A stretch of DNA of 64,000 bases from Nitrospirota bacterium (GTDB lineage Bacteria; Nitrospirota; Thermodesulfovibrionia; Thermodesulfovibrionales; Dissulfurispiraceae): contig CAWBMP010000005.1 of NCBI GenBank assembly GCA_963790025.1, forward strand, positions 288,001 to 352,000, written 5' to 3'. This document shows, piece after piece, positions 22,699 to 62,373 of this stretch (positions within the stretch are counted from its first letter, which is position 1; every line of letters starts with the position of its first letter). A model generated the notes under the pieces. The model was given only the letters and a program-made list of their open reading frames with translations, had not been told where the DNA came from and made no database searches. Made by a program: the position numbers and the translations under genes.

Positions 22699-25244
22699 GT
22701 GAATCAAAACGAGTCAGCAGTCCCATACACCGATTTCTTCCCTTTGAGGTCGATGGCTTCGATTCTCTTGTAGAGCTTGCCATGGACCTGCGCTTGTCGT
22801 GGGACCATCAGGCCGGCGAGGTATGGCAGCAACTCGATGCGGTGCTCTGGGACCTGACGCAGAACCCATGGGTCGTTCTTCAGACCGTCTCCAGGGACCG
22901 ACTTCAGCGCGTGTTGGATGATGCCACCTTCCGTAAGAAAGTCGATGACCTTTTGCAGGCAAAAAGTGAAGCGGCAGAATCGCCTTCCTGGTTTTCGCAA
23001 AATCATTCGGGTACCCAATTGAACAGCGTCGCTTATTTCAGTATGGAATTCATGTTGAGCGAGGCACTCCCGATCTATTCGGGTGGACTTGGTAATGTAG
23101 CCGGAGACCAGCTGAAGGCTGCAAGCGATCTGGGAGTTCCGGTAATCGGCGTGGGGCTCCTCTATCAACAGGGCTATTTCAGACAGGTAATAGACAGAAA
23201 TGGAATGCAACAGGCCCTCTTTCCCTATAATGATCCCGGTCAATTGCCTATTACGCCTTTGCGTGAGCCCGACGGAGAGTGGCTGCGTTTGAAAGTTGCG
23301 CTTCCCGGTTACTCCATGTGGCTGCGTGCCTGGCAAGTTCAGATAGGTAGAGTGAAGCTCTACCTTCTGGACAGCAATGATCCGGCGAACTTCCCGGCCC
23401 ACAGAGGAATTACAAGCGAGCTATATGGAGGCGGGCCTGAGCTGCGCCTTCTGCAGGAGCTGACACTAGGTATCGGAGGGTGGCGGCTGCTCAACATGCT
23501 CGGCATCAAACCCGATGTCTGCCATCTGAATGAAGGACATGCTGCTTTTGCGGTATTGGAGCGTGCCCGGTTTTTTATGCTGGAGACAGGGCAACCTTTC
23601 GAAGTTGCACTTGCCGTTACTCGTGCCGGCAACCTTTTCACTACCCATACAGCGGTCGCCGCAGGTTTTGATCGCTTTTCTCCTTCCCTTATGGAGCAAT
23701 ATCTCGGCAGATACGCCGGTGATAGGCTGGGCATCCCGTTCCATGACCTATTGGCCCTGGGCCGCCAGAACCCCAATGACTCCACGGAATACTTCAATGT
23801 GGCCTATCTCGCCCTGCGAGGGAGCGGGGCGGTCAACGGGGTGAGCCGATTACACGGACAAGTCAGTCGACGCATCTTTCAGCCCCTCTTTCAACCTTGG
23901 CCGGAGGTCGAAGTGCCGGTCGGGCATGTTACTAACGGGGTCCATATGCCGACCTGGAATTCAGAGGAGATCGAAGTACTTTGGACAGGGGCCTGTGGAA
24001 AAGAGCCCTGGATGGGTACCGTGGAAACCCTGGAAGAGAACATCCGTAACGTTTCCGATTTTATGCTCTGGAATTGCCGCACATCCGCCCGTGAGTCTCT
24101 GATCAAGTACATGCGGGAACGGTGGTCCCGGCAGGTGGCTGTATCGGGAGGGACGCATGAAGAGATTGAAAATGCCAGAAATATATTCGATTTCAACACA
24201 TTGACACTGGGCTTTGCCCGCCGTTTTGCGACCTACAAGAGGCCTAATCTGCTGCTGCATGATCCTGAACGGTTCCTTCGCATACTCTGCGATTCTCAAC
24301 GTCCCGTGCAGCTTGTCATTGCGGGCAAAGCGCACCCTGACGATCACCAGGGACAGGCCATGATTCAGCAATGGACCCAGTTCATTCGCCGGCCTGAAGC
24401 GCGCAATCATGTAGTGTTTATCAGCGACTACGATATGTTGTTGACCGAACGTATGGTGCAGGGCGTGGATGTCTGGGTCAATACACCGCGGAGGCCCTGG
24501 GAAGCATGCGGAACGAGCGGCATGAAGGTGCTTGTCAATGGAGGAATTAATCTTTCAGAACTTGATGGCTGGTGGGCTGAGGCCTGGTCGCCGGAAGTCG
24601 GGTGGGCCTTGGGTGACGGGAAGGAGCATGGTGATGACCCTGCCTGGGATGCTGTCGAAGCTGAGGCACTCTACACTTTGCTCGAACAAAATGTGGTCCC
24701 CGAATTTTACTCGCGTGATCAAAACGGCATCCCTGCCGCCTGGGTAACGCGAATACGTGAGAGTATGGCCCGGCTGACGCCGCGTTTTTCCGCCAACCGG
24801 GCTGTCATAGAATATACCGAGCACTACTACATTCCTGCTGCCGAGGCATACCGCGAGCGTGCCTCGGGAAAATGCGCTGAGGGTGCTCAGATAGTGGAGT
24901 GGCAGCATAATCTGGCACAGAAATGGACCAATCTGCGCTTTGGGGAAATTAAAATTGAAACTGACCCGGAACGGCACTTGTTTGATATCCAGGTGTATCT
25001 AAACGGCCTCGATCCCGACTCTGTTCGAATAGAGCTTTACGCGGACGGCTTGGACGGCGGCGACCCCGAGAAGCAGGAGATGATGCGCGGTAAGCAACTC
25101 GTCGGCGCAGAGAATGGCTATACTTACAGCGCGATGGTGCCGGCGACCCGACCGGCTGCAGATTATACAGCGCGGGCGCTGCCTTACCATCCCTGCGTTG
25201 CGGTGCCACTGGAAGCTGATCAAATCCTGTGGCAGCGGTGGTGA
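22695..25244 (+). CDS. glgP: Alpha-glucan phosphorylase (long form, GT35)
   Basis: [30 protein letters not shown] (PLP Lys). Confidence 0.95.
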
Positions 25245-25250
25245 GAGTAT

Positions 25251-26543
25251 TTACTTGTCTCTTGATGTCATAAGCAATATGCCTTGTCCCGGTCGCAGGT
25301 CGTACGAGAATGGCGATGGTACATAGTCGAGAGCATATTCCGGAGAGATATCGAGTATTGGAGCGCCCGCCTGAAGATATCCCTGAAGTGACTCTGTATG
25401 GAAATATTGCTTGTTGTAATTGTCTTTATTCAGAATTAAGAGTGATTCTTCATTTGTATAACCTGATGCCTTCCACATAAGCAGAATACCCGGGTTGTCA
25501 TAATGCAGCACAGTTGTGGGGGCCTCCTCCTGGAATACTGGATGACCTGACTTTGCCTTGTTGACGCTTGCTATGAAAGAAGTCAGATCAATGCCTGTTT
25601 CTTCCCAATCTTCAGGTCTGGTTTTTACCACGTGCAACTTCTTGCGGAAGCCGAATTCGAACCCCATCGGCATCATAACGCCGCATGAAAACAGGGCAGA
25701 GAACAGATAGCGTTGTTTGAGCCCTTCGATATTTCCGCCCAATTCTTCGCAGAGCCTGACCGTATCGTGGCTCTCGGGGAAGCTGACGGAAGGGGCTATT
25801 TCCCGTGTAAGGACATATTGTTCCATCAACCATGGGTTGTTGAAGTCCCACCATTTTGAACTGTTGAAAATATAATCGAAACCGGCGGCGGCGGTTTTTC
25901 GTGTCAGGTCGGGCGGGCATCCGAGTGTTTCCGCGAAAAAAAGTGTGTCGGGATATTTTTTCTTTGTTTCGGTGATGAGTCTTTTCCATAGACTTCCGGG
26001 CAGTTGATACGCAGCATCGCACCGGAATCCTTTAAAGCCCAGATCGGAAAGAAAACATATCACGCTGAAAAAGTATTGATAGAGTCCTTCTTTATCTTTT
26101 GTATTTACGTGGTCAAACCTGGCCAGGTCTTTCCAGACCACTTTTTTACCGTCTTCATCTGCAAAGGGATGAGCAATTCGTCCGTCGGCTTCCCAAAGAA
26201 ACCATCCCGGGTGTGATTTTATAAGGTCCGAATCCGTGGAACAATGGTTGATCACCAGGTCCACCATCACCTTCAGCCCGAGTTGTTCTGCAGCCCGGAC
26301 CATATCTTTCACCTGCTCCTGGGGTTTCTTTTCACTTTCAGAGTCAATGAACAGCGGATTGAAATCAAGATAATCCGCTATAGAGTAAAGACTCCCCGAA
26401 GTCCCCACACGCTGGATGGGATTGACAAAAATCCAGTTGAAGCCCATTTCGGATGCCCTCAAAAAATGACTGCCCCAGCCGGTAAACTTTCCTGCCAGCA
26501 GGGGGAAGAGGTTATAGATGATCATTATTTCGGGTTTTTTCAC
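25251..26543 (-). CDS. GH13 alpha-amylase-family enzyme
   Basis: DLVINH, GFRCDAA, FAE, SHD conserved regions. Confidence 0.88.
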   Translation of the reverse strand: MKKPEIMIIYNLFPLLAGKFTGWGSHFLRASEMGFNWIFVNPIQRVGTSGSLYSIADYLDFNPLFIDSESEKKPQEQVKDMVRAAEQLGLKVMVDLVINHCSTDSDLIKSHPGWFLWEADGRIAHPFADEDGKKVVWKDLARFDHVNTKDKEGLYQYFFSVICFLSDLGFKGFRCDAAYQLPGSLWKRLITETKKKYPDTLFFAETLGCPPDLTRKTAAAGFDYIFNSSKWWDFNNPWLMEQYVLTREIAPSVSFPESHDTVRLCEELGGNIEGLKQRYLFSALFSCGVMMPMGFEFGFRKKLHVVKTRPEDWEETGIDLTSFIASVNKAKSGHPVFQEEAPTTVLHYDNPGILLMWKASGYTNEESLLILNKDNYNKQYFHTESLQGYLQAGAPILDISPEYALDYVPSPFSYDLRPGQGILLMTSRDK

Positions 26544-27607
26544 TGTTTGTTCTCCTTTTTACATGCTTCCAGTACGAGTTGGTGGTTATCACTAAGAACA
26601 GAAAGCCATAAATTCATCCGTTCGGCATTTCTCCTGTTCCTCCAGTGATGAAAGAGGTAAGAGGCGTTTCCGAGCTGGAGCATGCCTTCGGTCGGATGAA
26701 TTTCCAATGAGAAGGAAATGTGGTCCGGACCGGGGAGTTTCATGGATTCTGCGATAACCCTTGAAAGTCCACGCGGTCCGAACATGAGGTCGAGATGCCT
26801 TGCACTCCCGTATTCAAATGGTAACATAATTTTATTCAGAAAACTGAGGTGGTCACTTACGCCAAAAGGGCTGAAGGTCGAGAGCGGGTGTGCATCATGC
26901 AGATGGTAATGCACAGGTTTGCCCAGGCTCCCGACCTCCCGGACCACGCGCAGAACTTCAGCAGGCGAAGCGGCGACCGCCTCCTGAACATCTTTTATTA
27001 CTTCCCGAAGTCCGGGATCTTGGGGCTTCAAAGCACAAACATCTCTTCCCGGGTATTTGCGTGAGTAGATGCGGCTTGCCTGCCAAAGGCCAATATGTCC
27101 TATATCGATGCAACTGCTGATGCGCTCAAGGTCACTTGCTGCCCTGAAAAGTGTTATGAAGATATCAGTCTCAAGCCCTGCAGCGTATTCGATAAAAAGA
27201 TAGGGACTCCCCTTGATATCCTGCAGACGGGATTCCATCTCCTGCAGGACAGTCAAATAATTGTCAAAGCGCGCGGCGATTTCGTTTTGATCATGAATAA
27301 TCAATCCCAGCACCCGGTTTTTGAAGTTTTTCGCAAAATCGAGGACCAGCCTTCGACCGCTTTCCTCGAAGAGGTTGATCCATCTGGGCAAATGCACGGC
27401 AGACGGTGCTTCAGGAGTCGGCTTGAACCCCAAAAGCCGCTCCAGCTCATACGGCGTTTCGGCGTAGAACTCGGGTCCCAGCCCTGCCTCTTTAAATCGC
27501 AGGGAGGCGAGCTGCAAAAGAGCGTCATCGCCGTCAATTCTTTTTTGAAAAAGCCCCAGAACAGGAGGGCAAGTGCTGGGCCCTCGACTGGACAAGATAG
27601 ATTCCAT
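26540..27607 (-). CDS. Xylose-isomerase/AP-endonuclease-2-like TIM-barrel protein (start uncertain)
   Basis: Metal-ligand pattern VHLP, IEY, IDIGH, HLHD, SDH, LEIH. Confidence 0.6.
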   Translation of the reverse strand: MESILSSRGPSTCPPVLGLFQKRIDGDDALLQLASLRFKEAGLGPEFYAETPYELERLLGFKPTPEAPSAVHLPRWINLFEESGRRLVLDFAKNFKNRVLGLIIHDQNEIAARFDNYLTVLQEMESRLQDIKGSPYLFIEYAAGLETDIFITLFRAASDLERISSCIDIGHIGLWQASRIYSRKYPGRDVCALKPQDPGLREVIKDVQEAVAASPAEVLRVVREVGSLGKPVHYHLHDAHPLSTFSPFGVSDHLSFLNKIMLPFEYGSARHLDLMFGPRGLSRVIAESMKLPGPDHISFSLEIHPTEGMLQLGNASYLFHHWRNRRNAERMNLWLSVLSDNHQLVLEACKKENKQ

Positions 27608-30600
27608 CTCCTGAAATTACCCCCTCGATATCCTGTGGACCGCTTAACGCATTTTCCACAAACTTTCCGACTGTCCCCAAACGTCCGACTGTGAGATTTC
27701 TGAAGGACCTGTCCATCGACATCCTGATGCCTGTATAATCGATGGTTTCAGCTGTTATCCCGCCGGAAGGACCGGGCAGCAAGGCATGACTGAAACTTGC
27801 AAAGGACAGCATCCTCACCTCTCCTGTTTCTTTATAGCAGACCGCACGGTAAGGACTGCCTGGAGTCGCAGCTGAAGCCAATGTTTCGCCCAGACCGACT
27901 GCCAGCTCTATATAAATCTCTCCAGGATCACAACTTACCGGATTGCGGGTATTCATGATAAATGAAAGTTCCGGAACGAGCATCTTCTGGATGAGTACAG
28001 CCATTACCGCTCTTTCGTGCTGAATGCCGGTGTTTCTTCTGTTCATGACCGCACGTACGTTCCATAGCGAGGCCCAGACCTTGAGTATTGCAGGAGCAAC
28101 ATCCGAAGGCTGAACATTGGCAACGGAATCGTAGAGTCCGGCCCCGGACGAAACTCTCATGTCTTCACAGTTGGCACTGGAACGGACAATCAACCTATCC
28201 GGCAGCCGTTCATCCCGCGTAAATTCTTTCAAAACTCCGGAAACGATTTCAGCCGGGACCGGAAGGTGATTTATGATGTCCTGCAGTCTTGTCAAAGCAC
28301 CGGCCAGGTCGCTTTGCCTCAGCCTGTTCAAGTTGCCGACCAGTGCCTTGTACTCTCTTTCAAGAGCAGGTTTCGCAGAGAGGCATGTCTCCATCACTCC
28401 AAAGGGAATTACAATTCCCGCTGCTGTTTTAAGTCCGGCATGCTCAAGCCTCGACATTTCTTCGAGCCTGCGCGCCGAGTCAGCTTTTCCGCCCCCGTTT
28501 TCCGGAGTGACCTCTTTAAGAGGCAGTAATTTGACTGCGGAGTTCAAAATTACGTGAGGCGGTTCAATAGGATACGTATTGATGGGAGCTGCAGTAATGC
28601 CGGAAGAAATTTTCAGGCTGACACTTTCCGTAAAGGCATCCAGAGTAACCAATTGACCGGCGAGACCTGTTAACTCCGAAAAAAGCCCCCTGTCCTCGCA
28701 TGCTGCGAATACGACATGGCTTTGACGGGCACGGACGGCAAGGTGAGCAAGATGGGGGATTCCATGAGCAACTATAATACCGGCTATCCATGCCGGAATT
28801 TCCTCATCGCCTTCTGCTCTTTCCAGAAGTGCCACGAACGGTCCGTTATGGCCATCCGATAAATTCCCAAGGCCGCCGGCAGCTACCAGGCGTCCTGAGG
28901 CTTTTCCAGGCACTATTATGTCCCAGGAGGGAAGATTTGCGAGTGTCCGAATACTTTTTCGAAGAAGATCGACGAGTTTTGACACCTGAAAGACAATGTG
29001 GCCCCTGATGTCGGCCTCTCCGAAAACTTTTATTGCATGCCCGGCCACGTCAAGTGCGCGGCCCAGCCTTTCGGCTTTTTCAGGGAAGAGAGATAGAATC
29101 TTATGACAATAATCTTCCGCTAAACGCGAGTATCTGTCGAGCGTGGCTTTGAGACGGATCAATTCCTCATGTAATTCTTCACGGTCAGCGGGGATAAGCT
29201 TTTCAGACCAGCTCTTTAGTTCTGATTCTATGGCCCGGCACTCTTCAGGGTCCAAGCCGCTGAGTCGCAAATTCCGTATAGCCTGCACTAACGAGGATAA
29301 AGCCAATTTCCTGTCCTTAAGAACATCGAAATGATCGCTTAAACGGCCTGCGAGGCGGCTCAGGATGACAAAAGAAAAATCCTCCAGCCCGATGTCCGCC
29401 ATGAGAAACTTCTGCGCCTTAGTTTCGTCTTGAAGTTTCTGCATTTCGCAGAATTGGCCGCGAAGTCCTGTTAAAAGCTCCAACACGGTCAACATTTTTT
29501 GTGGAGTGTCTATCTCCTTTTTGGCCCTGAGAAATGCACTTATAGAATCTGCCGGACCGAGATCGATCTCCTTCTCTATTGCGCTGAGTCGTTCATCGAG
29601 AGTAGCGGCATTGAAAAATTCTTTGAGTTCGCTATGAAAGCGCTTGAATTCCTCAACAAAGGCAGGTGAATAATCGGCGTCAGGGGCGGTTATTTTTGTC
29701 AGCAGGCCTTTGGAAGTGGCAAGGTCTTCCGGACCGGCTGAACGGTGCAGTTTGTTCTGGAGCGTATCTTTGATCTCCTTTTTCAATTCTCCGGGAATGT
29801 CGTTTCTGTGGGCGATGTCCCTTATGCGTGTGAGGGGTTCGGCCCTGGTGAATGCGCTGTCGAAAGAAGGCAGCCACGGGTAAATTTTTCTTATGATAAA
29901 AAAGTTTTCGGGGGTTATTATGTTAGAGAGCCTCCCGTATATCTGCTGCGCCATCTTTGCGTGATGCCAAGGCCGGTGATGCCCACCTTCCTCGCCGCAA
30001 GGGACTTCACCTGTGCCGATAAAACGAAGATAGATAGCTATATAAAGGAGATGTTCGATGTTCAGATCGAAGGTATCGCAGGTCAAAACATCATAAACCC
30101 AGCCGAGCCTGTTCTGCCAACTCAGGAACCTGCGGTTTGCAGCAACGATTTCATTTACAAAATCATCAGAGGCAGGAGTAAAGGCAGAAGTGAAGGCAGA
30201 AGCAGAAGCGGAAGTAGAGGTAGAGGAAGAGTTGGAGTTGATTATTTCGATAAGTCTGGTACGTGCCTCATTGAGCAGGCCTTCCGGCTGCGGCCATTGT
30301 TCGAGGATAATACTTCCCGAAAAGTTGCGTTTGTTCATCCGCTCCATAAAACCGGTTATGCCCGCAGCGTCTTTTCCCGCAGGGCCTGTGAAAATGGGCA
30401 GGTGACTGTCACAGTCCCCGTAGTTTTCGTGCATGTGTATATGAATGACAGGTACTTCCGGATCGAGCAGATCGACAAACTTGAGATAGTCGTTACGGGT
30501 CGCATAATATAAGTTTGCATGACCGAGATCCAGGCACATTCCCACATTGCCGGTCCTTTCCAAACTGCGAAGACTCCTGAACAGTTCATTGAAATCTTGT

Positions 30601-31040
30601 GGCCCGGTATACAAAGTGTTTTCAATTGAGAGTTGGATCCCGGCCTTTGCAAGGCGTTTCCCCAGTGGAGCGATCGCGTCCGCGAAGGCGGCAACCCCTT
30701 TGTCGTTATAAAAATGAATGTTGATAAGCGTTGCACCGATGTCCTGTGCGAACCCGATAGTTTTGGAGATGAGTTTGCCGGCATCTGATATGACAGGATT
30801 TGACTGCAGTGAAGCATGCACAGAGAGTCTGATATCACCAGCGAGAGCTGTGTCCCTTATGAAAATACGTGTTTCTTTGGATATGTCGCTTTCTTCCCAG
30901 CCCGCCCCAGATTCATTTTTGTCCGGAAACCATTCAAAGGCGTCAAACCTGTTAGCCATGGCATATTCGAAAGGCAGCATCAGGGAAGGCGCATGTCGGG
31001 ATGTTTGATTACCGATACGCACCCGCGCTGTTTCAATCAT
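27534..31040 (-). CDS. Phosphoglucan water dikinase (PWD/GWD3)-like protein with N-terminal TIM barrel
   Basis: GGHHRP, LPSF, PLTRIRDIAHRNDIP, QNKLHRSAGPEDL, phospho-His motif PHLAHLAVRARQ, RSSANCED...AGLYDS, QDIEG; ATG overlaps the upstream stop. Confidence 0.88.
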   Translation of the reverse strand: MIETARVRIGNQTSRHAPSLMLPFEYAMANRFDAFEWFPDKNESGAGWEESDISKETRIFIRDTALAGDIRLSVHASLQSNPVISDAGKLISKTIGFAQDIGATLINIHFYNDKGVAAFADAIAPLGKRLAKAGIQLSIENTLYTGPQDFNELFRSLRSLERTGNVGMCLDLGHANLYYATRNDYLKFVDLLDPEVPVIHIHMHENYGDCDSHLPIFTGPAGKDAAGITGFMERMNKRNFSGSIILEQWPQPEGLLNEARTRLIEIINSNSSSTSTSASASAFTSAFTPASDDFVNEIVAANRRFLSWQNRLGWVYDVLTCDTFDLNIEHLLYIAIYLRFIGTGEVPCGEEGGHHRPWHHAKMAQQIYGRLSNIITPENFFIIRKIYPWLPSFDSAFTRAEPLTRIRDIAHRNDIPGELKKEIKDTLQNKLHRSAGPEDLATSKGLLTKITAPDADYSPAFVEEFKRFHSELKEFFNAATLDERLSAIEKEIDLGPADSISAFLRAKKEIDTPQKMLTVLELLTGLRGQFCEMQKLQDETKAQKFLMADIGLEDFSFVILSRLAGRLSDHFDVLKDRKLALSSLVQAIRNLRLSGLDPEECRAIESELKSWSEKLIPADREELHEELIRLKATLDRYSRLAEDYCHKILSLFPEKAERLGRALDVAGHAIKVFGEADIRGHIVFQVSKLVDLLRKSIRTLANLPSWDIIVPGKASGRLVAAGGLGNLSDGHNGPFVALLERAEGDEEIPAWIAGIIVAHGIPHLAHLAVRARQSHVVFAACEDRGLFSELTGLAGQLVTLDAFTESVSLKISSGITAAPINTYPIEPPHVILNSAVKLLPLKEVTPENGGGKADSARRLEEMSRLEHAGLKTAAGIVIPFGVMETCLSAKPALEREYKALVGNLNRLRQSDLAGALTRLQDIINHLPVPAEIVSGVLKEFTRDERLPDRLIVRSSANCEDMRVSSGAGLYDSVANVQPSDVAPAILKVWASLWNVRAVMNRRNTGIQHERAVMAVLIQKMLVPELSFIMNTRNPVSCDPGEIYIELAVGLGETLASAATPGSPYRAVCYKETGEVRMLSFASFSHALLPGPSGGITAETIDYTGIRMSMDRSFRNLTVGRLGTVGKFVENALSGPQDIEGVISGDGIYLVQSRAQHLPSCSGAFSKKN
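30169..30240 (-). repeat. Hexamer-periodic low-complexity tract encoding a Ser/Thr/Ala interdomain linker
   Basis: gaggcaggagtaaaggcagaagtgaaggcagaagcagaagcggaagtagagg encodes SNSSSTSTSASASAFTSAFTPAS. Confidence 0.7.
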
Positions 31041-34000
31041 TTTCAAGACCGGTCTGGGGACGTGATTGCACGACATAATATTGCCCGTTCGAGTAGGCCC
31101 CCTCGATATCCTGCGGGCCACCGAGGGCCTTTTCAACAGATGTGCCGATACCGGCAATCTTTATCAGAAACTCGTTCCGGAAATTAGCGTCCCATACAAG
31201 TGCCTCTTCTGCGTAATCCAGCGTGACTTTAACAGGCTGCGGCAGCATGAAGCTGTCGTAAAGACCCGCACCGGCGTAACCGGCAAGGTCCTCGCCATTT
31301 GAATCCGAACGGAAGATCAGGCCGCCCCCCGAGCACTCAAATAGCTTGCCGGTTGCGTGTTGAATGCCCGGTAAACAGGAATAGAGACCGACACTCTTGC
31401 CCGGCAATGACAGCAGGTGCGGCCCCTGATTCCCCTTTTTGCAGACGAAGCTCAAGGCCCTTCCGGGGTAGTTTGCAACCAGTGCCTCCCCGAGTCCCAG
31501 GACAACTTCAGCATAAACTTCGTCGTTAGCGTTAGTGAAAGGGTTCACAGTATGAATCACAAAACTATAATCAGCTTCAACTATCCTCTGGATAAGGACA
31601 GCCATCATTAGGTCCTTATGAGGGACACCGCTTGCCTTACGGCTTAAGTACGCCCTTTCATTCCACTTCGAGCCCCAAACGCGCTTGATGCAGGTCCAGG
31701 CGTCATCCTGTCCTTCCTGCCGGCTTTCCGGTCCACTTTCCGGCAATCCGAGTCCGGCATTTTCCATCACTGTGCGAAGCGAGGAACTGAATTCATCAGG
31801 GGCCTCAAGGGCCAGTATTATTTTTTTTATTTCTTCCAGTAAAGCGGTATACGACATTGCCGTTTCTTCATTTAGCCGCCGTGCCAGCTCATCATGCTGT
31901 CCAGCGAGTTCTTTATTGACGGGATCGCTGAGGACCTTGTCAAAAACCCCAAAAGGCAAGGCTGCCGAAGCAGGGAGGTGTATCCAATCCGGCAGTTTGC
32001 CCTGCATGCGTTTAAGATTATTGGATTTGCCACCTGTATTTTTATCATTGAAAGCATTCATTGCTACGACGTAGACACTGAAAGGCGCAAACCCCGCCAT
32101 CGCAGACCCTAAAGAGACTTTGGCTTTTTGGGGGGTACTCATTTCTTCCCTGCTTTCTTCGAATGCGACCTCGCCGATTTCGTTTGTGCTCAGCTTTATG
32201 CGGCGGCCGCCAAGTGATTTCAGCTTGCCGATCACATCAGAGTCGTAACAAACGGCAAAGAGTATACGCACATTTCTGGCCCTGACAGCCAGATGGGACA
32301 ATACATCTATTGATGCAGGCGTTATAAGGGCGACAACTCCTTCGGGAATTTCCTCGTCGCCCCTCACATCGCCGGCAATGATGACGGTAGGGCGGCTAAA
32401 ATTCTTGCCCTGGATGGATTTTAAATTAAGCACGGTTTCAATCACCCCTGTCGTCTCATGGCCGGGACTGATCACTTGCCAGTTTCCGAGGTCTGCGCTT
32501 TTCCGCAAAACAGGATCAAGTTTGCGCAAAAGTGCCGAGAGGACAAACGCAGGTCTGCCGCGCACCACTGCTTCAGCAAAAAGCTTAATAGTCCATGGAG
32601 CTGCATGAAAGGCATTGCCGAGGGCTTCGGCTTTGGGCTGAAGGAGTTGGTAATACCGGTCAATGAAATTGCCGATGCCCCTCTGAAGGCGGTCGACAAC
32701 GGCTTTGGACTGAAGCGGCCACAGGGTGCCGGGACCGGGCATCTTGCCCAGGCGCTTAAAGTAAAGAAGACAGTTCTTAAACTCCTCGTCCGGATTTGAG
32801 AGACACAGGTTTTCAAGAGACACTTTGGTCAATCCGACGAGTTCATCTACTGTCAGCTTCCGGTCCAGGTTTTTTTCGACAACGGCCCTGAATAGGTCTT
32901 CAAGGGCCAGATCGAGAAAAAGGAGATCGCGCACAGAGCTTTGGTGCTCGCCGAGTCTGCCCGTCACCGCGTAGCGGGCCTCGGTGATCTTTTCGAGGAG
33001 TATGGGCACGTCCTCTCCGCGATCATCCCGATGCCTCCATATATAATCCATCAGGCTGTGCATTTCCGCATCAAACAGATACCGGGCATTATTAATGGAC
33101 GCTCCGAGATCGGTGCCGGAATGTACCTCCCTCAGTATTCCAAGGAAATGCTCGAAATCGTGAATGAGCGCATCTTTCAGGTGAGGAATGAACTCCGGGC
33201 TGGATATTATCGGGCGCTCATAAGTTTCCAGCCGTTTCCGCGGAACACCGCCTTCTTCGAGTCTCTTATAGAACAGATCAAGCTTCCCGTCACTTCTCAG
33301 GAATTCCAGGTAGGCCTCACATATGACGATATCGTCGGGCGTGGCGTTGTTATGGAGTTTCTGGTGCCATTCCTCCATAAAATGTCCCGCCATCTCTTTG
33401 ATGTGGTGGCGATGCATGATATTCAGTATCTCGTCGCGGACCCGCTGGGCGTCCTTCCCGGTGCCGAGCGTTGTCATCATCAGGCGGATGAACTCGCGCT
33501 CCCCCGGCTCAAGGATGTAGCGGCCCGCAAGCTTCAATGTAAGGCGGTCCATGGCATGGCCTAATTCGCGCGGTTTGGTATTATAGTTTCGCTGCCAGTC
33601 CAGTTGCCTGATATAAGAAAAGCGCAGCCAGACATAAAGAAGGGCAATGCCGTCGACGTCATTGCTTGCAATCCCGTCCAGCAGGTCGTAACAGAGATTT
33701 AACCTGTGCATCAATGTCCATGAATTGCGGCCAATTTCATTTTCGATTATTTTATCTGTAATGGCGGCAAGTTCGAGACTTTCTGAAAAAGCCTCCTGTC
33801 CGGAAGACGGAGCAACGGGTATGAAAAAGTTTTGTCCCTTATCTTTTATCCAGCGCCCTGTATCGCTTTGCTTTAGAACAAACCAGATACCCAGGGGCGC
33901 TTCGTCTTCGCTGGAATCAAGGAGCAGCAGGCTGGTACCATCGCTATAGGCGCTGTCGGCAAATGGCGTCTGGGCCGCTGTGTCCTGGAATACGGTTGTA

Positions 34001-34230
34001 CCGGGAGGCCGAAGAGAGGATTGCGGCAAAACCCATTCATGGCGCGACTTATATGCTGCTCCCCAATGCAGGATCAGGGGGCCCCGTATATCGGCAAGCA
34101 GTGCAATAATGTAATGCCTCTTGTCTTTGGTCACAACAACAGCCAGTTGCCCTTCATCAAGCCGGTACGGGCGTTCATAAACGATCTTTTCCTGATCTAC
34201 CGCTTTTTTAAGTTCTTCGATTAAAAGCAT
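31033..34230 (-). CDS. Alpha-glucan water dikinase (GWD1/R1)-like protein
   Basis: CBM45-like LILHWG...EW; RQLDWQRNYNTKPRE; RVRDEIL; EEWHQKLHNNATPDD; DVLSHLAVRARN; FRSDSNGEDLAGYAGAGLYDS; QDIEG...VVQSRPQ. Confidence 0.9.
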   Translation of the reverse strand: MLLIEELKKAVDQEKIVYERPYRLDEGQLAVVVTKDKRHYIIALLADIRGPLILHWGAAYKSRHEWVLPQSSLRPPGTTVFQDTAAQTPFADSAYSDGTSLLLLDSSEDEAPLGIWFVLKQSDTGRWIKDKGQNFFIPVAPSSGQEAFSESLELAAITDKIIENEIGRNSWTLMHRLNLCYDLLDGIASNDVDGIALLYVWLRFSYIRQLDWQRNYNTKPRELGHAMDRLTLKLAGRYILEPGEREFIRLMMTTLGTGKDAQRVRDEILNIMHRHHIKEMAGHFMEEWHQKLHNNATPDDIVICEAYLEFLRSDGKLDLFYKRLEEGGVPRKRLETYERPIISSPEFIPHLKDALIHDFEHFLGILREVHSGTDLGASINNARYLFDAEMHSLMDYIWRHRDDRGEDVPILLEKITEARYAVTGRLGEHQSSVRDLLFLDLALEDLFRAVVEKNLDRKLTVDELVGLTKVSLENLCLSNPDEEFKNCLLYFKRLGKMPGPGTLWPLQSKAVVDRLQRGIGNFIDRYYQLLQPKAEALGNAFHAAPWTIKLFAEAVVRGRPAFVLSALLRKLDPVLRKSADLGNWQVISPGHETTGVIETVLNLKSIQGKNFSRPTVIIAGDVRGDEEIPEGVVALITPASIDVLSHLAVRARNVRILFAVCYDSDVIGKLKSLGGRRIKLSTNEIGEVAFEESREEMSTPQKAKVSLGSAMAGFAPFSVYVVAMNAFNDKNTGGKSNNLKRMQGKLPDWIHLPASAALPFGVFDKVLSDPVNKELAGQHDELARRLNEETAMSYTALLEEIKKIILALEAPDEFSSSLRTVMENAGLGLPESGPESRQEGQDDAWTCIKRVWGSKWNERAYLSRKASGVPHKDLMMAVLIQRIVEADYSFVIHTVNPFTNANDEVYAEVVLGLGEALVANYPGRALSFVCKKGNQGPHLLSLPGKSVGLYSCLPGIQHATGKLFECSGGGLIFRSDSNGEDLAGYAGAGLYDSFMLPQPVKVTLDYAEEALVWDANFRNEFLIKIAGIGTSVEKALGGPQDIEGAYSNGQYYVVQSRPQTGLEND

Positions 34231-34234
34231 GTTC

Positions 34235-35743
34235 TCATGTAATGCCTTTCCTCTCGATCATCCGGAAATGATCAGCGAATATCTTGCGGAAATGAAAGCC
34301 GTATATCGAAAACGTTATGGCCAGAGGGAACAGTTTCGGATGCCTGAAAAGGGACCAGAAGAATAATCTCCAATAATAGAAACGCTCTTTCCCTATTATC
34401 CCGAGTATGAGCACAGACTTAAATCCTGCTTTAACATAGCTGTACCGCATATGGATTACATTTTTCTGGACCGGCCTGTACTCTCGCAGGAACAGTTTGA
34501 CCCGCTTATAGTAATTTTTTGGAGAATAGATTGTATCGATGATTTGTTTATAGCCTGTGATTAGTCCTTCGTAGTTCATCTTTGGAATGAAGTTCATTGA
34601 AAAGTCCGTATTGTCCCCCGACACAGCGTTCAACAACCTGTTTTCTCCGACCAACCGGTGATAGAGCTTTGTCCCACGCGGCGCATTCAGGAGTCCTACC
34701 ATTGCCGTCACAATCCCGCTCTCCTGGATGAACCCTATCATCTTCTCAAATATCGAGGCCGGGTCTTTATCAAAGCCGACGATGAACCCGGCCTGGACCT
34801 CAAGCCCGAAACTTTGTATCTTCCTGACACTCGCTATAAGGTCCCTGTTCCTATTCGGTATTTTTGTGCATTCAAGAAGGCTTTCCTCGTTGGGAGACTC
34901 GATGCCAACAAAAACAGTACTGAACTCGGCCCTCGCCATCATTTTCATGAGGTCCTCGTCGTCGGCCAGATTGATGGACGCTTCGGTCGAGAGCGTAAAA
35001 GGATGCCTCTTCAGGTCCATCCATTGGATAATCGACGGCAGTATCTCCTCTTTCAGTTTCTTCCTGTTCCCGATGAAGTTGTCGTCAACGAAGAATACCC
35101 CGCCCCTCCAGCCGAGAGAGTAAAGTTTCTCCAGTTCGCCGATTATCTGACCGTTGTTTTTTGTCCTGGGGACCCTGCCGTATAGTGAGGTTATATTGCA
35201 GAATTCGCAATCAAAGGGGCACCCCCTCGAATACTGGATATTCATGGAGGCGTAATCCTTCATGTTTATAAGCTCCCACAAGGGAATGGGCGTGGTCGTC
35301 ACATCGGCCCATTTATTCGATGTGTAGAGACTTTTGGGCCGTCCCTCTCTCAAATCGTTCAGGAACGGATGAAGCGTAATCTCCGCCTCGTTGAGCACAA
35401 GATGGTCTATGTCGGGAAACTCTTCGTGATCATTGGTAAAGAGCGGGCCTCCGGCAACCACTTTAACGCCTGCGGCCCTGCATCGTTTGATAACGGTTTT
35501 TGCCGATTCCTTCTGTATGGACATAGCGCTCAGAAAGACATAATCCGCCCACAGAAGATACTTGTCTTTCAGTTTCCGGACATTCATGTCCACGAGCTTT
35601 TTCTCCCATTCGCATGGAAGCATTGCTGCCACTGTCAGCAGCCCGAGTGGCGGATTGACGGCTTTCTTTGATATGAACTCGAGGGCATAGGAAAAACTCC
35701 AGAAGGTATCGGGATATTCCGGATATATAAGAAGGACTTTCAT
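34235..35743 (-). CDS. B12-binding radical SAM protein (DUF4070-type)
   Basis: PDTFWSF, PPLGL, SRGCPFDCEFC, FFVDDNF. Confidence 0.9.
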   Translation of the reverse strand: MKVLLIYPEYPDTFWSFSYALEFISKKAVNPPLGLLTVAAMLPCEWEKKLVDMNVRKLKDKYLLWADYVFLSAMSIQKESAKTVIKRCRAAGVKVVAGGPLFTNDHEEFPDIDHLVLNEAEITLHPFLNDLREGRPKSLYTSNKWADVTTTPIPLWELINMKDYASMNIQYSRGCPFDCEFCNITSLYGRVPRTKNNGQIIGELEKLYSLGWRGGVFFVDDNFIGNRKKLKEEILPSIIQWMDLKRHPFTLSTEASINLADDEDLMKMMARAEFSTVFVGIESPNEESLLECTKIPNRNRDLIASVRKIQSFGLEVQAGFIVGFDKDPASIFEKMIGFIQESGIVTAMVGLLNAPRGTKLYHRLVGENRLLNAVSGDNTDFSMNFIPKMNYEGLITGYKQIIDTIYSPKNYYKRVKLFLREYRPVQKNVIHMRYSYVKAGFKSVLILGIIGKERFYYWRLFFWSLFRHPKLFPLAITFSIYGFHFRKIFADHFRMIERKGIT

Positions 35744-35902
35744 TGAAAACTCCTTATGGATAAATGGACAGGTTAATACGCTCGATGGAATCGACTGAAG
35801 CGCCAACTATGACGATGAATACGGAACGTCTCACTAATGAGAATTATAACACAATTCTTCTACATTACTTGTCATTAATAGCTGAATCAAATGTTCGGGC
35901 CG

Positions 35903-37768
35903 TTAGTCCATAGATGGTTTTTGGGTTGCCGGAGGTATAAATACTCTTACTGTTGTACCCCTGCCTTCGGCCCCGGTAATCTCCACTGCCCCTCCCCAGG
36001 GATATACACGCTCTCGCATCCCTATTATGCCGAAGGATTGGGGCTTAGAAAGTTCCTCATCTGTTATGCCTTTGCCATTATCCATGACTTCCAGTATAAC
36101 CTGGTCATTGTCCCGTATTAGTCTTGCCGTTACCTTTGTGGCATTCGCATGCTTAAGGACGTTTGTCAGTCCTTCCTGAAAGATTCTGTAAAGTGCGGTA
36201 CTCCGTTCTTTGTCCAACTCGATATCCTCAGGCTCTGAGCAAAAAGTGCATTCTATCCCAATGCGTCTTTGAAATTCGTTCGCCTGCCATTCCAGTGCGG
36301 CAACAAGACCGAAATCATCCAATAACGAAGGTCTCAGCTCAGCGCAGATGCGCTTGACGGACAAGATTGCCTCATTTAGTGTATTCATCATTCCTTCGAC
36401 CTTGTCGAATACGGCCGTCTGGTCCCGGTAATTGCTTCGAAAACAACATAATTCCATCTTAATGGCCGTCAATATCTGGCCGAGTTCGTCATGAATCTCA
36501 CGCGCAATAGTTGTTCTTTCCTCTTCCCTGAAGGTAAGCAAATGAGCGGCAAGCTCACGAACTTGCTGATGCAATATTTTTAGCTCAGCTGTTTTTGCGA
36601 CTACGGTTTGTTCTATTTTGACATTTCTTCTAAAGACGCTTATCATCAGCATCGATACTGCACCTGTCAGCAGCAAACCGCTGATTAAAACCAGCACGTG
36701 GCCGTGCGTAGCCGCAACAGCGCCTGGATGAGTCACATATATTTTCCATGAGCGGCCGCCCACATCAATCATCTTTTCCGTTAGCGGCCTGTTTTGGGCC
36801 TTTTTTTCATGCGCTGTAAAGTCCATTGTTTCATCTGAATAGACGCCGAGCAGCCGTCCCGAACTGGATGCATCCATGTCTTTTATTCCTATTGACAGAC
36901 CTGCGCGCGTGAACCCTGACAATGCCCTTTCGACTATATCGCTTATCCTGAATACACCAAGAACAAAGCCGCGCAGTCCCGATGAATCAGGTACAACGCT
37001 TTCATCAAGAATTCCCGGGTTGTAAACAGGATAAAATAACAGAAAGCCGCATTGACTCGATCGTTCCTGGACCAGATTTATTCCTTCCGTGGCTGCTGAT
37101 CCTCCGATATTTATCGAGTGCCTGATCGCCTGTAATCTGGGAGCACTGGACGCCAGGTCTAAACCCAGAGCGGCTTCGTTGCCTTTATATGGTTCAAGAT
37201 AATAAACGGGTAAGTATTCTTTTCTCTTTCCTGCACGCACCATTTGCCCTTGTTCATTCAGTTCCTTTATCTCAAAGACGGGATAACCGTCTCTTTGTGC
37301 AGCCTGCTCGTATTTCTTCCTTTCGGAATAAGGAATTAACGGGACCCATTCCAACGCCTGTATGGCGGAGTTTCGAAGTAGTGTGTCCGCTATTTCATGA
37401 AATACATGCCTATCGACATCACGATTTGCGGCATAAAGACCGGCCAGGGCTTTCAGTGTTGTGACATTGGAATCAAATGCTTCTTCAAGCGCAAAAATTT
37501 GGTCTTCAGCAGCATCCTTCAGCTTTTGTTGCACCAATGCCAGTTCGGATATATATGTCTTATAGGTGCTGAAGACCGTTAAACCAACGGCCGCAATTAA
37601 AAATAACCCAAGGGAAAAAAGTTGTTTGCGTCGAAGTTTATATTTAGAGTCTGTAAACACTTGGACCTGCCCCCGAAAACTGTGCAGACCTTCACAACCA
37701 TAAGATTGCTTCGCAGTCGCCCCTCGCACAGATGGTACGCATGAAATAATTTCTCCGGTAATATACAC
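35903..37768 (-). CDS. CHASE-domain sensor histidine kinase (HisKA_3); native N-terminus uncertain
   Basis: YLEPYKGNEAALGLD (CHASE); ERTTIAREIHDELGQ; DNGKG. Confidence 0.85.
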   Translation of the reverse strand: MYITGEIISCVPSVRGATAKQSYGCEGLHSFRGQVQVFTDSKYKLRRKQLFSLGLFLIAAVGLTVFSTYKTYISELALVQQKLKDAAEDQIFALEEAFDSNVTTLKALAGLYAANRDVDRHVFHEIADTLLRNSAIQALEWVPLIPYSERKKYEQAAQRDGYPVFEIKELNEQGQMVRAGKRKEYLPVYYLEPYKGNEAALGLDLASSAPRLQAIRHSINIGGSAATEGINLVQERSSQCGFLLFYPVYNPGILDESVVPDSSGLRGFVLGVFRISDIVERALSGFTRAGLSIGIKDMDASSSGRLLGVYSDETMDFTAHEKKAQNRPLTEKMIDVGGRSWKIYVTHPGAVAATHGHVLVLISGLLLTGAVSMLMISVFRRNVKIEQTVVAKTAELKILHQQVRELAAHLLTFREEERTTIAREIHDELGQILTAIKMELCCFRSNYRDQTAVFDKVEGMMNTLNEAILSVKRICAELRPSLLDDFGLVAALEWQANEFQRRIGIECTFCSEPEDIELDKERSTALYRIFQEGLTNVLKHANATKVTARLIRDNDQVILEVMDNGKGITDEELSKPQSFGIIGMRERVYPWGGAVEITGAEGRGTTVRVFIPPATQKPSMD

Positions 37769-37805: not shown

Positions 37806-39250
37806 TGTCAAGCCAATTTAGAAATGTCCTATTTTTACCAAAATAGAAATGTCCGGTTTTTACGCTGCTGCTTTCCTCAACCTTTTCCTCAACTCTTGCC
37901 TTTTGAATATAAGGTCTTGTGATGTTCTCCAGAGATGATCTTTTGCCGGCACGCTATTTTGTGAATATCGTCTAATGGTGCTTTTCTCTTTATTCATCTT
38001 TTCCGGCCGGGCATCAATTTCTTTATACTTAATGCGCCTATCCTGGTACATTACTAACATCGTGCCGTCAATGCGTTCTTCGACTATTACTCTCGTCTTC
38101 TTTGGAAACGCCTCTTTAAGCTGATAGATTTTTTTATTGTGCCGTATAGTATTGTCATTTCCTACTGTATGCTCTGACCGTATACATAATATCCTGTTGA
38201 GGTTAAGTCCCTTTGGAATAGCCCTATGAATATCTTCCTTATGATGCGGATGAACCATAAATTTCTTATTAAAGTCAGCCCAATAATGTTCTTCCATGAA
38301 CATGTTTGCTTCTTCTATTGTGTTGGTTCCACGCAGTCGCAGTTCCTTTACCAGTCGGTCCTGTAACGTTTCATACAGCCTCTCCACGCGCCCTTTCGCC
38401 TGAGGAGAATAAGCATGAATGCGTTTTACTCCAAGTTCTGCCAATGCTCTGCCAAACTCGCTCAAGGGTTCAGTGCCGTTAATCTCGTCCTCTATGGAGG
38501 GCTCAGATGAAGATTTATAGGTCTTGTGCCTATCAAAATATACGCTCATAGGAATGCCATATTTCCTTATGTACCGCTTAAAACTGTCCATCGCAGGGAT
38601 TGTGCCCTCGTATTCATAAAACCTGCCATATACTCTGCCCGTTGCGTCATCTATATAGGCCATTAGAACACATTGTGGGCCTCTGTCTTCAAACCATTTG
38701 TGATGTGAGCCATCCATCTGCAACATTTCCCCACAATTCATTTTCCGTGGACGCCATTGTCTATGTATCTTTCTTTTTCGTCTTTTCTGCCATTCTCCTG
38801 CCTCGATAAGCCATAAGCGTAAGGTCTCATCACTTATCTTTATTTCGTCTATCTCAAAGAGCTTTTCTGCTGCCAGAGTAGGCCCAAATCCTTTATACCG
38901 CTCCTTATATAACTTGATAACCCTTTCTTTGAGCTTCCTTGGCCTTTGTCTGTTCGATTGTCTGCCGCGAGATCGGTGCCTTATTCCTGTATCCCCTTCC
39001 TCGGTTATACGTTTAACTATTCTCCTTATCTGTCTTTCACTCATTGAAATAATTTCGGCTGCCAGCCTCTGAGTTATCTCTCCTTCGATTACTTTGTGAA
39101 TTACATGCAATATCCTCAATTCCTTCTGCCGTACCATGATAATGTCCCCTTCTGCCATCCCGCCTCCCTCTCAAAAAGAGGCAGTATAGCATTACCTCAA
39201 TAGGACATTTCTAAATTGGTACTATAGGACATTATCATTTTGGCGCGACA
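37806..39250 (-). mobile_element. ISNCY/IS1202-group insertion sequence
   Basis: TGT...ACA ends; imperfect TIRs with repeated aatgtcc motifs; 16-bp direct repeat ccgcccgatttttttt at 37790-37805 and 39251-39266. Confidence 0.9.
37860..39158 (-). CDS. DDE transposase (ISNCY/IS1202-like)
   Basis: HTH; QMDGS.H.WFE; IDDATG; SPQAKGRVER. Confidence 0.92.
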   Translation of the reverse strand: MAEGDIIMVRQKELRILHVIHKVIEGEITQRLAAEIISMSERQIRRIVKRITEEGDTGIRHRSRGRQSNRQRPRKLKERVIKLYKERYKGFGPTLAAEKLFEIDEIKISDETLRLWLIEAGEWQKRRKRKIHRQWRPRKMNCGEMLQMDGSHHKWFEDRGPQCVLMAYIDDATGRVYGRFYEYEGTIPAMDSFKRYIRKYGIPMSVYFDRHKTYKSSSEPSIEDEINGTEPLSEFGRALAELGVKRIHAYSPQAKGRVERLYETLQDRLVKELRLRGTNTIEEANMFMEEHYWADFNKKFMVHPHHKEDIHRAIPKGLNLNRILCIRSEHTVGNDNTIRHNKKIYQLKEAFPKKTRVIVEERIDGTMLVMYQDRRIKYKEIDARPEKMNKEKSTIRRYSQNSVPAKDHLWRTSQDLIFKRQELRKRLRKAAA

Positions 39251-57013: not shown

Positions 57014-57032
57014 AATTTCCCTTTGTCGTGAA

Positions 57033-57048
57033 TGCATATGGCATGCCA
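57033..57048 (-). promoter_or_regulatory. Sigma54 (-24/-12) promoter of the lipid cluster
   Basis: TGGCATGCCATATGCA on the minus strand (GG-N10-GC), directly downstream of an NtrC-type activator gene. Confidence 0.7.
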
Positions 57049-57140
57049 AAGAAAAAAGCCTTATTTATCAAATGCACTTATTAACTGGAATGATAAAGCA
57101 CGAAGAAAATGTATACGAAAAAAGTCAGAGGTTAGGCCCT

Positions 57141-62250: not shown

Positions 62251-62373
62251 AATCTGAAATTTTACCACTAAATACTAAGTATTTACCATCAACCGCCATC
62301 ATCGGGGTAAGCGGCGAATTCCCAATTAAAGTACTGGGGCACAACGGACGATAATATAGTAGGACCTATAATT

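Follow-up and report, generated by a model that had tools for sequence, protein, structure and literature searches.

A 64,000-nucleotide stretch of DNA from a member of the Dissulfurispiraceae, Nitrospirota (positions 288,001–352,000 of contig CAWBMP010000005.1, assembly GCA_963790025.1; hereafter the window) carries on its minus strand a conserved module of four genes, 25251–34230. Two of them encode homologues of the starch-phosphorylating dikinases, a GWD1-type alpha-glucan, water dikinase (GWD) and a phosphoglucan, water dikinase (PWD); the others encode a TIM barrel protein and a glycoside hydrolase family 13 (GH13) enzyme. In the starch literature glucan, water dikinases are taken as a mark of starch-making eukaryotes, and a conserved bacterial operon with both dikinase types lets that view be put to direct test. 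We conclude that starch phosphorylation has in this module a genuine bacterial variant, conserved and not described before, whose function and origin we infer below. Its genes and their main features, all on the minus strand, are as follows (aa, amino acids; pLDDT, predicted local distance difference test).

31033–34230, minus: GWD1-type alpha-glucan, water dikinase homologue, 1065 aa (Pfam, PDB, trees, alignment)
33814–34158, minus: single CBM45-like Ig domain, aa 25–139 (PF23166, E 2.8e-26, in one stretch)
32293–32295, minus: codon CAT of His646, predicted phosphohistidine (aligns with the His of DVLSHVSVRARN in Solanum GWD1)
27534–31040, minus: 1168-aa homologue of PWD-type dikinases with a TIM barrel fused at its N-terminus (Pfam, trees, alignment)
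30240–31040, minus: N-terminal endonuclease-IV/xylose-isomerase-like TIM barrel, aa 1–267 (PF01261, 75.5 bits against 31.1); candidate metallo-phosphoesterase
30165–30239, minus: Ser/Thr/Ala-rich low-complexity linker from barrel to core, aa 268–292 (translation; pLDDT 41–50)
27537–30155, minus: PWD-type core, aa 296–1168, with central, phosphohistidine and nucleotide-binding domains in canonical motif order (Pfam, alignment)
28743–28745, minus: codon CAC of His766, predicted phosphohistidine (aligns with PHLSHLGVRARQ of Chlorokybus PWD)
26540–27607, minus: 355-aa protein, divergent paralogue of the N-terminal barrel (hhalign, AlphaFold2 model); second candidate phosphoesterase
25251–26543, minus: compact cytoplasmic GH13 enzyme, 430 aa (Pfam hDGE_amylase, Alpha-amylase)

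The dikinases belong to the GWD1 and PWD types

An earlier note on this DNA, made from the sequence alone, had described two tandem, intronless and translationally coupled dikinase open reading frames (ORFs). Both frames are indeed open with a single terminal stop each, the window contains zero N, and the ATG of the PWD-like gene at 31040 overlaps the upstream TGA of the GWD-like gene (31033–31035) by 8 nucleotides. All eight motifs quoted in that note are present in the genes to which it assigned them, and both histidine codons lie at the positions it gave. It had also placed a GH13 gene after the dikinases; the gene is real, but the ORF for the 355-aa protein intervenes.

In the GWD-like protein a single CBM45-like Ig domain is followed by central helical, phosphohistidine and nucleotide-binding domains (Pfam Ig_N_CWD1, E 2.8e-26; GWD1_pHisD, PF22973, aa 583–696, 2.3e-34; PPDK_N, PF01326, 5.8e-27). 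Residues 5–1059 align with residues 410–1463 of Solanum dulcamara GWD1 at 39% identity over 1095 columns, an alignment that runs from the second CBM45-like domain to the C-terminus and includes the blocks DVLSH(L/V)xVRARN and FRSDSNGEDLxGYAGAGLYDS. Over aa 156–579 the protein matches the central domain of plant GWD (PDB 9ha9, E 1.7e-82; 9qvi, 9e-82). It contains the motifs RQLDWQRNYNTKPRE (aa 208–222), EEWHQKLHNNATPDD (aa 286–300), DVLSH (aa 642–646) and FRSDSNGEDLAGYAGAGLYDS (aa 973–993), and the predicted phosphohistidine is a histidine in 119 of the 119 bacterial homologues listed. The identity with Solanum GWD1, the 9ha9 match and a GWD clade with support of 100 (see below) bear out the GWD1-like identity proposed earlier; at the N-terminus the PF23166 match gives one CBM45-like copy, against a tandem pair in plants.

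From the second CBM45-like domain as far as the late FRSDSNGEDLxGYAGAGLYDS motif, the domains follow one another as they do in plant and algal GWD1 (SEX1/R1; EC 2.7.9.4). Compared with plant GWD1, the window protein is approximately 400 aa shorter, has no transit peptide and contains one Ig_N_CWD1 copy instead of the two found in Solanum GWD1 (which has DUF7067 in addition) and in 1160-aa bacterial forms. DUF7067 occurs in 0 of the 121 bacterial proteins listed, against 117 of the 120 long proteins listed. The bacterial gene also differs in that it sits in an operon.

The PWD-like protein matches AP_endonuc_2 (6.7e-21, aa 71–297 of the longer ORF), GWD1_pHisD (1.7e-22) and PPDK_N (9.1e-37), and carries the motifs GGHHRP (aa 352–357), PLTRIRDIAHRNDIP (aa 402–416), QNKLHRSAGPEDL (aa 428–440) and PHLAH (aa 762–766). 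Residues 296–1157 align with Chlorokybus atmophyticus PWD at 38% identity over 927 columns, with the shared blocks PLTRIRDIAHRNDIP...QNKLHRxAGPEDL and PHLxHLxVRARQ, and His766 is conserved in 119 of the 119 homologues listed. The core, the PLTRIRDIAHRNDIP block, the PHL.HL.VRARQ block and the clade are common to this protein and PWD/GWD3 (EC 2.7.9.5). The N-terminus is not: 40 of 45 eukaryote-type PWD representatives have a CBM20 there, whereas the window protein has the endonuclease-IV-like barrel and, unlike in eukaryotic PWD, some bacteria have a second barrel fused at the C-terminus. The PWD-like identity given in the earlier note is upheld for the catalytic core (38% identity to Chlorokybus PWD; PWD clade support 100) but not for the whole protein, in which a TIM barrel replaces CBM20. 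Judged by clade and domain content, this is a PWD-clade enzyme of different architecture. The two window dikinases are 26% identical to each other. The Pfam matches of both lie far outside what chance would produce.

An exhaustive phmmer search with the PWD-like core against 1.84 billion cluster representatives returned 434 proteins at E≤1e-30. Among the 146 representatives listed (50%-identity clusters), the N-terminal barrel is present in 41, and the 355-aa protein recurs at the C-terminus in 9; 45 of the 53 with another N-terminal extension were scanned for CBM_20, which 40 of the 45 contain. Named members of the eukaryote-type group are Porphyridium purpureum PWD, P. aerugineum, Chlorokybus and Mesotaenium. 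The cluster P0458 (28 members, 1205–1213 aa) falls in the CBM20 (eukaryote-type) PWD clade and has a weak Ig_N_CWD1 (CBM45-like) match in place of CBM20; some of its members are on contigs of up to 600 kb.

Phosphoenolpyruvate (PEP) synthase, pyruvate phosphate dikinase and rifampin phosphotransferase have PPDK_N and the swivelling phosphohistidine mechanism in common with these proteins, but the N-terminal and central domains of the window proteins are specific to GWD and PWD. NCBIfam models for PEP synthase and rifamycin phosphotransferase match the nucleotide-binding domain only. The two dikinases score at best 119.5 (cut-off 999) and 86.3 (cut-off 883), and the PEP synthase model scores 113.9 against 866. 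The earlier note had named branching with PEP synthase or rifampin phosphotransferase as contradicting its proposal; neither dikinase attains a cut-off among the models of these families.

The two TIM barrels and the GH13 enzyme

The AlphaFold2 model of the N-terminal barrel of the PWD-like protein has a pLDDT of 86.6. In profile comparisons with PDB sequences the barrel matches MJ1311 (3wqo, 1.3e-11), endonuclease IV (2.5e-4 and 9e-3) and UlaE (0.022). Foldseek gives MJ1311, labelled 'D-tagatose 3-epimerase-like', as the best solved relative (template-modelling (TM) score 0.67–0.73), followed by UlaE, the African swine fever virus AP endonuclease, ketose (psicose) 3-epimerases and endonuclease IV 8rly (TM 0.63). 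Thirteen positions are invariant in 24 sequences from several phyla: H75, H109, E140, D171, H174, H200, H202, H204, E205, D209, D211, H213 and E247. HMMER aligns H109, E140, D171 and H174 with H109, E145, D179 and H182 of Escherichia coli endonuclease IV, and H75 with the VHAPY His of the Mycobacterium tuberculosis enzyme; these five endonuclease IV residues we take to be zinc ligands. MJ1311 reportedly keeps the nine zinc ligands of endonuclease IV without its DNA groove. The 3'-phosphatase activity of endonuclease IV indicates that hydrolysis of a sugar-3-phosphate monoester is within the capacity of a site of this kind. Endonuclease IV (Nfo) and MJ1311 have the TIM barrel fold, membership of PF01261 and His/Asp/Glu positions in common with the N-terminal domain; they differ from the barrels described here in that the latter are fused to, or encoded beside, a dikinase, and in that the 355-aa paralogue has diverged beyond the reach of Pfam.

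The 355-aa protein has no Pfam or NCBIfam match, and 5 of 24 homologues match AP_endonuc_2 weakly (best 2.6e-4, below the cut-off). Its AlphaFold2 model is a TIM barrel (pLDDT 91.5), and hhalign pairs it with the N-terminal barrel at a probability of 95.9% (E 5.5e-9), which is its sole link to PF01261. By this profile comparison the two barrels are homologous. The invariant positions of the 355-aa family are H72, H105, D106, E140, D168, H171, H233, H235, H237, D238, H240, D252, H253, E302 and H304. The language-model neighbours of this barrel in the Atlas are 'hypothetical' clusters, in two of which Actinomycetota is the commonest phylum; the family may reach beyond dikinase operons.

In plants the removal from glucans of C6 and C3 phosphate, which allows their breakdown to go on, is carried out by phosphatases of dual specificity (DSPs), namely SEX4 and LSF2, to which laforin is related in fold. 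No DSP domain was found in the 11 ORFs between 19161 and 42051 (Pfam) or in the 38 other ORFs of the window (E≤1e-6). Judging from their residues and fold, both barrels are candidate multinuclear-metal phosphoesterases acting on phosphoglucan, and the role proposed for them would be analogous to that of SEX4, LSF2 and laforin, although barrel fold and chemistry are unrelated to those of the DSPs. This assignment is the weakest link of the model set out below; the barrels would represent a new, non-DSP class of candidate glucan phosphatases.

The GH13 enzyme is the best conserved product of the four genes, with 59–82% identity across phyla. The positions invariant in 17 sequences (D95, N99, H100, R174, D176, E205, H259 and D260) contain the full catalytic set, with D176 in GFRCDAA and E205 in FAETLG, and the closest PDB profile matches include 3dhu (2.8e-24) and GlgE 5cgm (2.2e-20). 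Regions I–IV and the catalytic Asp, Glu and Asp are common to compact GH13 enzymes (3dhu, 4gkl) and the GlgE maltosyltransferase; by comparison the window enzyme has 430 aa only, and its counterparts in 7 loci form one ORF with the 355-aa barrel. Inspection of the translations by eye showed no N-terminal signal sequence.

The module is conserved across bacterial phyla

Word-indexed protein searches at E≤0.001, with 7999 candidates scored each, gave at least 1562 matches to the GWD-like protein and at least 1259 to the PWD-like core. The best 120 of each are 54–74% (GWD-like) and 49–68% (PWD-like) identical to the window proteins, and the organisms named among them are all bacterial (Nitrospirota, Dissulfurispiraceae, Ca. 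Sulfobium, Desulfobacterales, Deltaproteobacteria). When a 745-aa part of the GWD-like protein was compared with proteins longer than 1304 aa in a search for eukaryotic homologues, the 120 listed were 36–43% identical (E 1e-157 to 1e-180), and those with an organism name were all land plants or green algae.

A scan of 185,579 one-per-species genomes with an alignment of PWD-like proteins confirmed 144 stretches, of which 80 loci were kept. In most of the 80, from at least seven bacterial phyla, the genes stand in the order GWD-like, TIM-PWD-like, 355-aa barrel, GH13, so that the survey of synteny suggested in the earlier note finds the four-gene order recurring across bacterial genomes. The locus titles name Nitrospirota, Thermodesulfobacteriota, unclassified Deltaproteobacteria, Verrucomicrobiota, Planctomycetota (Ca. 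Anammoxibacter), Chloroflexota, Acidobacteriota and Pseudomonadota; an 'archaeon' contig of 3 kb at 0.8x coverage is among them as well. The counts below are for loci with enough flank; 'same ORF' means that no stop codon lies between the parts.

TIM barrel: 75 of 76 assessable loci; it shares the same ORF with the core in 69 and has an ORF of its own in 6
GWD-like gene: 55 of 63 assessable loci; it lies directly upstream in 52 and elsewhere in the locus in 3, and 8 loci lack it
355-aa gene: 60 of 65 assessable loci; it comes next in 56, shares the same ORF with the dikinase in 3 and lies elsewhere in 1
GH13 gene: 42 of 56 assessable loci; it comes second downstream in 32, shares the same ORF with the 355-aa protein in 7 and lies elsewhere in 3

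It can be seen that the four genes travel together across phyla, fused in various pairs. The pairwise identities of the two dikinases are correlated over 17 loci (Mantel r 0.82, reached in 0 of 5000 permutations), which indicates that the two share one history, a result that shared descent alone would also give.

Fusions were judged as stop-to-stop ORFs, unscreened for frameshifts or assembly errors. TIM-PWD-355aa fusions of approximately 1490 aa occur in L026, L030 and L040, and 355aa-GH13 fusions of approximately 800 aa in L009, L022, L027, L034, L035, L054 and L059. Barrel and PWD core are separate ORFs in six close Nitrospirota relatives (L002, L014, L017, L019, L028 and L060); between the two lie a GNAT gene and a Cache/PAS histidine kinase gene in L028, and an IS200-like transposase and an RHS-repeat fragment in L060. 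Two further loci, L037 and L055, are PWD-like fragments on contigs of 3–5 kb with 0.7–0.8x coverage, binned as 'archaeon' and 'Gammaproteobacteria'; they are 58–60% identical to the window protein and probably mis-binned.

Reviews and a 2026 preprint (e.g. PMC12892837) hold the dikinases to be eukaryotic and the machinery of prokaryotic glucan phosphorylation to be unknown; PMC12892837 describes high-resolution GWD and PWD structures as missing. The earlier note, which had likewise called GWD and PWD generally regarded as eukaryotic, overstated the novelty: more than 1000 bacterial homologues are public, many of them named by JGI 'alpha-glucan,water dikinase' or 'phosphoglucan,water dikinase', and a figure legend in PMC6260743 (2018) states that some bacteria may have obtained GWD by lateral gene transfer. 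We found no literature on a bacterial PWD, on the operon or on such barrels in glucan metabolism, in searches with thin coverage of subscription journals; a genome paper on Sandaracinus likewise had nothing that bears on them. The operon would add data on the origin of GWD and PWD, offer compact, intron-free proteins for structural work and predict which uncultured anaerobes may hold starch-like glucans.

Phylogeny and origin of the two dikinases

Trees were built with FastTree (132 rows) and IQ-TREE (LG+C20 PMSF, quick; 69 rows). Both divide the family into GWD and PWD clades, supported at 100 each and each containing bacteria and eukaryotes, and the window genes group with those of a Nitrospirota genome (L001; support 100). 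In both trees each protein joins its eukaryotic namesake, a placement that assigns the bacterial genes to the gene groups of eukaryotic GWD1 and PWD. Since both clades hold bacteria and eukaryotes, the GWD/PWD duplication predates the bacteria–eukaryote split within each clade. Eukaryotic GWD was sampled from green plants and algae, with one EukProt record and two MMETSP transcripts in addition. No PEP synthase was found among the ORFs of the 80 loci to serve as an outgroup, and the trees are without outgroup rooting.

Rooting with the PWD clade puts eukaryotic GWD (support 99) among the bacterial GWDs; its sister is a Chromatiales gene (96), and the clade around it comprises 16 rows (99). This nested placement depends on the attachment of the long root branch. 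Approximately unbiased (AU) tests were run on smaller sets under LG+G4, a model more prone to long-branch error, and the GWD test carried a 'long branches meet' warning. In these, holding the bacterial GWDs together cost 0.54 log-likelihood units (p-AU 0.472), and holding the bacterial PWDs together gave a tree 36.5 units better than the quick free tree (p-AU 0.882). On the strength of these values we make no claim on the direction of transfer between bacteria and eukaryotes.

The bacterial genes might have been taken from starch-making eukaryotes, which for GWD is the suggestion of PMC6260743, with the operon assembled afterwards and spread among bacteria, in which case they would say nothing on the origin of GWD and PWD. 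We regard this as a possible but doubtful course of events. The few carriers (144 stretches among 185,579 species genomes) and their patchy distribution across phyla speak for it; the intermixing of Chloroflexota and Verrucomicrobiota genes in the trees fits transfer among bacteria, and trees in which bacteria and eukaryotes each form one group stand for both GWD and PWD in the AU tests. Such a history is at odds with the nesting of eukaryotic GWD in bacterial GWD in the PWD-rooted tree (96, 99) and would require two separate transfers followed by operon assembly, whereas one bacterial operon could deliver both genes; nor do bacterial sequences ever fall inside the green or red algal subclades.

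A model for glucan phosphorylation and mobilisation

We propose that 25251–34230 is probably an intracellular module for the reversible phosphorylation and mobilisation of a storage alpha-glucan. By analogy with plants, phosphorylation for the purpose of mobilisation, acting on a semi-crystalline or phosphorylated glucan, is a reasonable reading of the gene content. The GWD-like enzyme would bind glucan via its CBM45-like domain and pass the beta-phosphate of ATP via His646 to the C6 of glucosyl residues; the PWD-like enzyme would then, via His766, phosphorylate the C3 of the pre-phosphorylated glucan. The phosphate charges would open packed chains for cleavage by the GH13 enzyme, and the neighbouring phosphorylase and glucose-6-phosphate isomerase could pass the products to glycolysis. 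The two barrels, one fused to PWD and the other free-standing, would remove glucan phosphates in place of SEX4 and LSF2, a role suggested by residues and fold. The bacterial module may in this way be likened to the plant cycle, in which GWD and PWD are followed by amylases and then by SEX4 and LSF2.

Several observations weigh against this proposal. A phosphatase joined to the dikinase whose product it hydrolyses would set up a futile cycle unless the specificities differ. Sugar 3-epimerases are at least as near to the N-terminal barrel in Foldseek as endonuclease IV is; five of the nine endonuclease IV ligand positions are tool-aligned and the other four are placed by the order of the invariants. 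The 355-aa barrel matches solved TIM barrels weakly (TM 0.43–0.48), and its profile finds none of the PDB sequences at E≤1. The PWD-like protein has no Pfam match to CBM_20, and its substrate binding may therefore differ. No glycogen or starch synthesis genes were found among the ORFs of the window. A GWD-like gene is absent from the flank in 8 of 63 loci and a GH13 gene in 14 of 56, and the carriers are nearly all uncultured, 79 of the 80 locus titles being metagenome-assembled genomes and L063 the exception.

The barrels are where an alternative most readily enters. The dikinases could act as proposed while the barrels are not phosphatases but isomerase- or epimerase-type enzymes acting on released sugars, or a glucan-binding or scaffold domain that replaces CBM20; dephosphorylation, if any, would then be due to a gene elsewhere. 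The leading Foldseek matches of the N-terminal barrel (3wqo, UlaE and ketose 3-epimerases), its location at the CBM20 position of eukaryotic PWD and the HAD-type phosphatase gene at 56294–57049 in the window would all agree with this. Ketose 3-epimerases, however, have a four-ligand site and require a free keto sugar; the barrel has 13 invariant His, Asp and Glu residues, and a glucan chain offers no keto sugar. The sequence profile also ranks endonuclease IV (2.5e-4, 9e-3) above UlaE (0.022). On this balance we consider non-phosphatase barrels unlikely, if still to be taken seriously. Less probable again, and in our judgement improbable, is that dikinases of GWD/PWD fold act on some other acceptor, whether another polysaccharide or a small molecule, in the manner of rifampin phosphotransferases and PEP synthases. 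The nucleotide-binding domains do match the models for those two enzymes (119.5 and 113.9 bits), the PWD-like protein is without a starch-binding module and no glucan synthesis genes lie nearby in the window; but the scores are far under the cut-offs of 999 and 866, the alignment with plant GWD1 extends over the full length and takes in the CBM45-like and central domains, and the dikinases have a GH13 enzyme as conserved partner and a phosphorylase beside them.

That a chimeric or contaminated assembly has joined algal or plant genes to bacterial DNA, the artefact against which the earlier note had cautioned, we consider extremely improbable. The guanine-plus-cytosine content between 24001 and 36000 is 0.475–0.523, within the range of 0.450–0.545 for the whole window and without a break; the genes overlap and have no introns, and they have ordinary bacterial flanks. 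The nearest proteins are bacterial, at 66–74% identity, and since the GWD-like gene lies directly upstream of the PWD-like gene, in the same order, in 52 of the 63 assessable loci from other genomes, a chimera is very unlikely.

A more far-reaching scenario extends the proposed module to the origin of the system: GWD and PWD would have arisen as neighbouring paralogues in a bacterial operon and entered eukaryotes, two metallo-phosphoesterases of endonuclease IV fold would take the place of SEX4, LSF2 and laforin, and the carriers would store a semi-crystalline or phosphorylated alpha-glucan. Taken as a whole this is speculative and we think it unlikely to hold in every part. If it were true, a hallmark step of starch breakdown would be a bacterial invention, and the organisms storing such glucans would include Nitrospirota, Desulfobacterota, Verrucomicrobiota and anammox Planctomycetota.

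Flanking genes and other features of the window

The minus strand between 25251 and 35806 contains five closely packed ORFs, the four of the module and one further gene upstream, and two plus-strand genes converge on them.

34235–35806, minus: B12-binding radical-SAM protein with DUF4070; ends 4 nucleotides before the GWD-like start
22695–25244, plus: alpha-glucan phosphorylase, TIGR02094 type (777 bits against a cut-off of 191.7); converges on the operon
21067–22698, plus: glucose-6-phosphate isomerase, pgi (PF00342, E 6.1e-225); co-directional with the phosphorylase

The range given in the earlier note extended over 34235–35743, which belongs to the radical-SAM gene. As a partner of the module this gene was rejected, because only 5 of the 80 loci, all from close Nitrospirota relatives, have it within 10 kb of the gene for the PWD-like protein. 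In L001 an opposite-strand kinase gene separates it from the operon. A gene for a CHASE-domain histidine kinase is located directly upstream of the radical-SAM gene in the window (35903–37768, minus); its homologue in L001, 65% identical, is on the opposite strand between the radical-SAM and GWD-like genes, a placement that indicates that the locus has been rearranged.

The convergence of pgi and the phosphorylase gene on the operon, as described earlier, is confirmed. Neither was retained as a conserved partner: a close phosphorylase homologue (75–81% identical) with pgi nearby was found in 3 of the 80 loci, L001, L013 and L026. The phosphorylase is a likely downstream step of the module and is kept as context, as is a phosphofructokinase gene at 47119–48213. 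A second, shorter carbohydrate phosphorylase-like ORF of 568 aa (59720–61426, minus; PF00343, E 1.2e-24) adjoins a menaquinone (futalosine-type) biosynthesis gene at 61423–62268.

The rest of the window is ordinary bacterial chromosome, with genes for RNase J, FtsK, LolA, PdxA, ZnuABC, a class A penicillin-binding protein and others. A scan for promoters and terminators between 24500 and 39500 was uninformative (16 and 19 sites against 17.0 and 16.2 expected). An IS200-like (Y1_Tnp) transposase ORF lies at 17439–18305 (plus), approximately 7 kb from the glucan genes, and approximately 4 kb beyond them on the other side a 432-aa ORF (37860–39158, minus) with weak helix-turn-helix matches may be a transposase. 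Two ORFs, at 6399–7220 and 62374–63285 (both plus), resemble formylglycine-generating enzymes (FGE-sulfatase), and no sulfatase gene was seen beside either of them.

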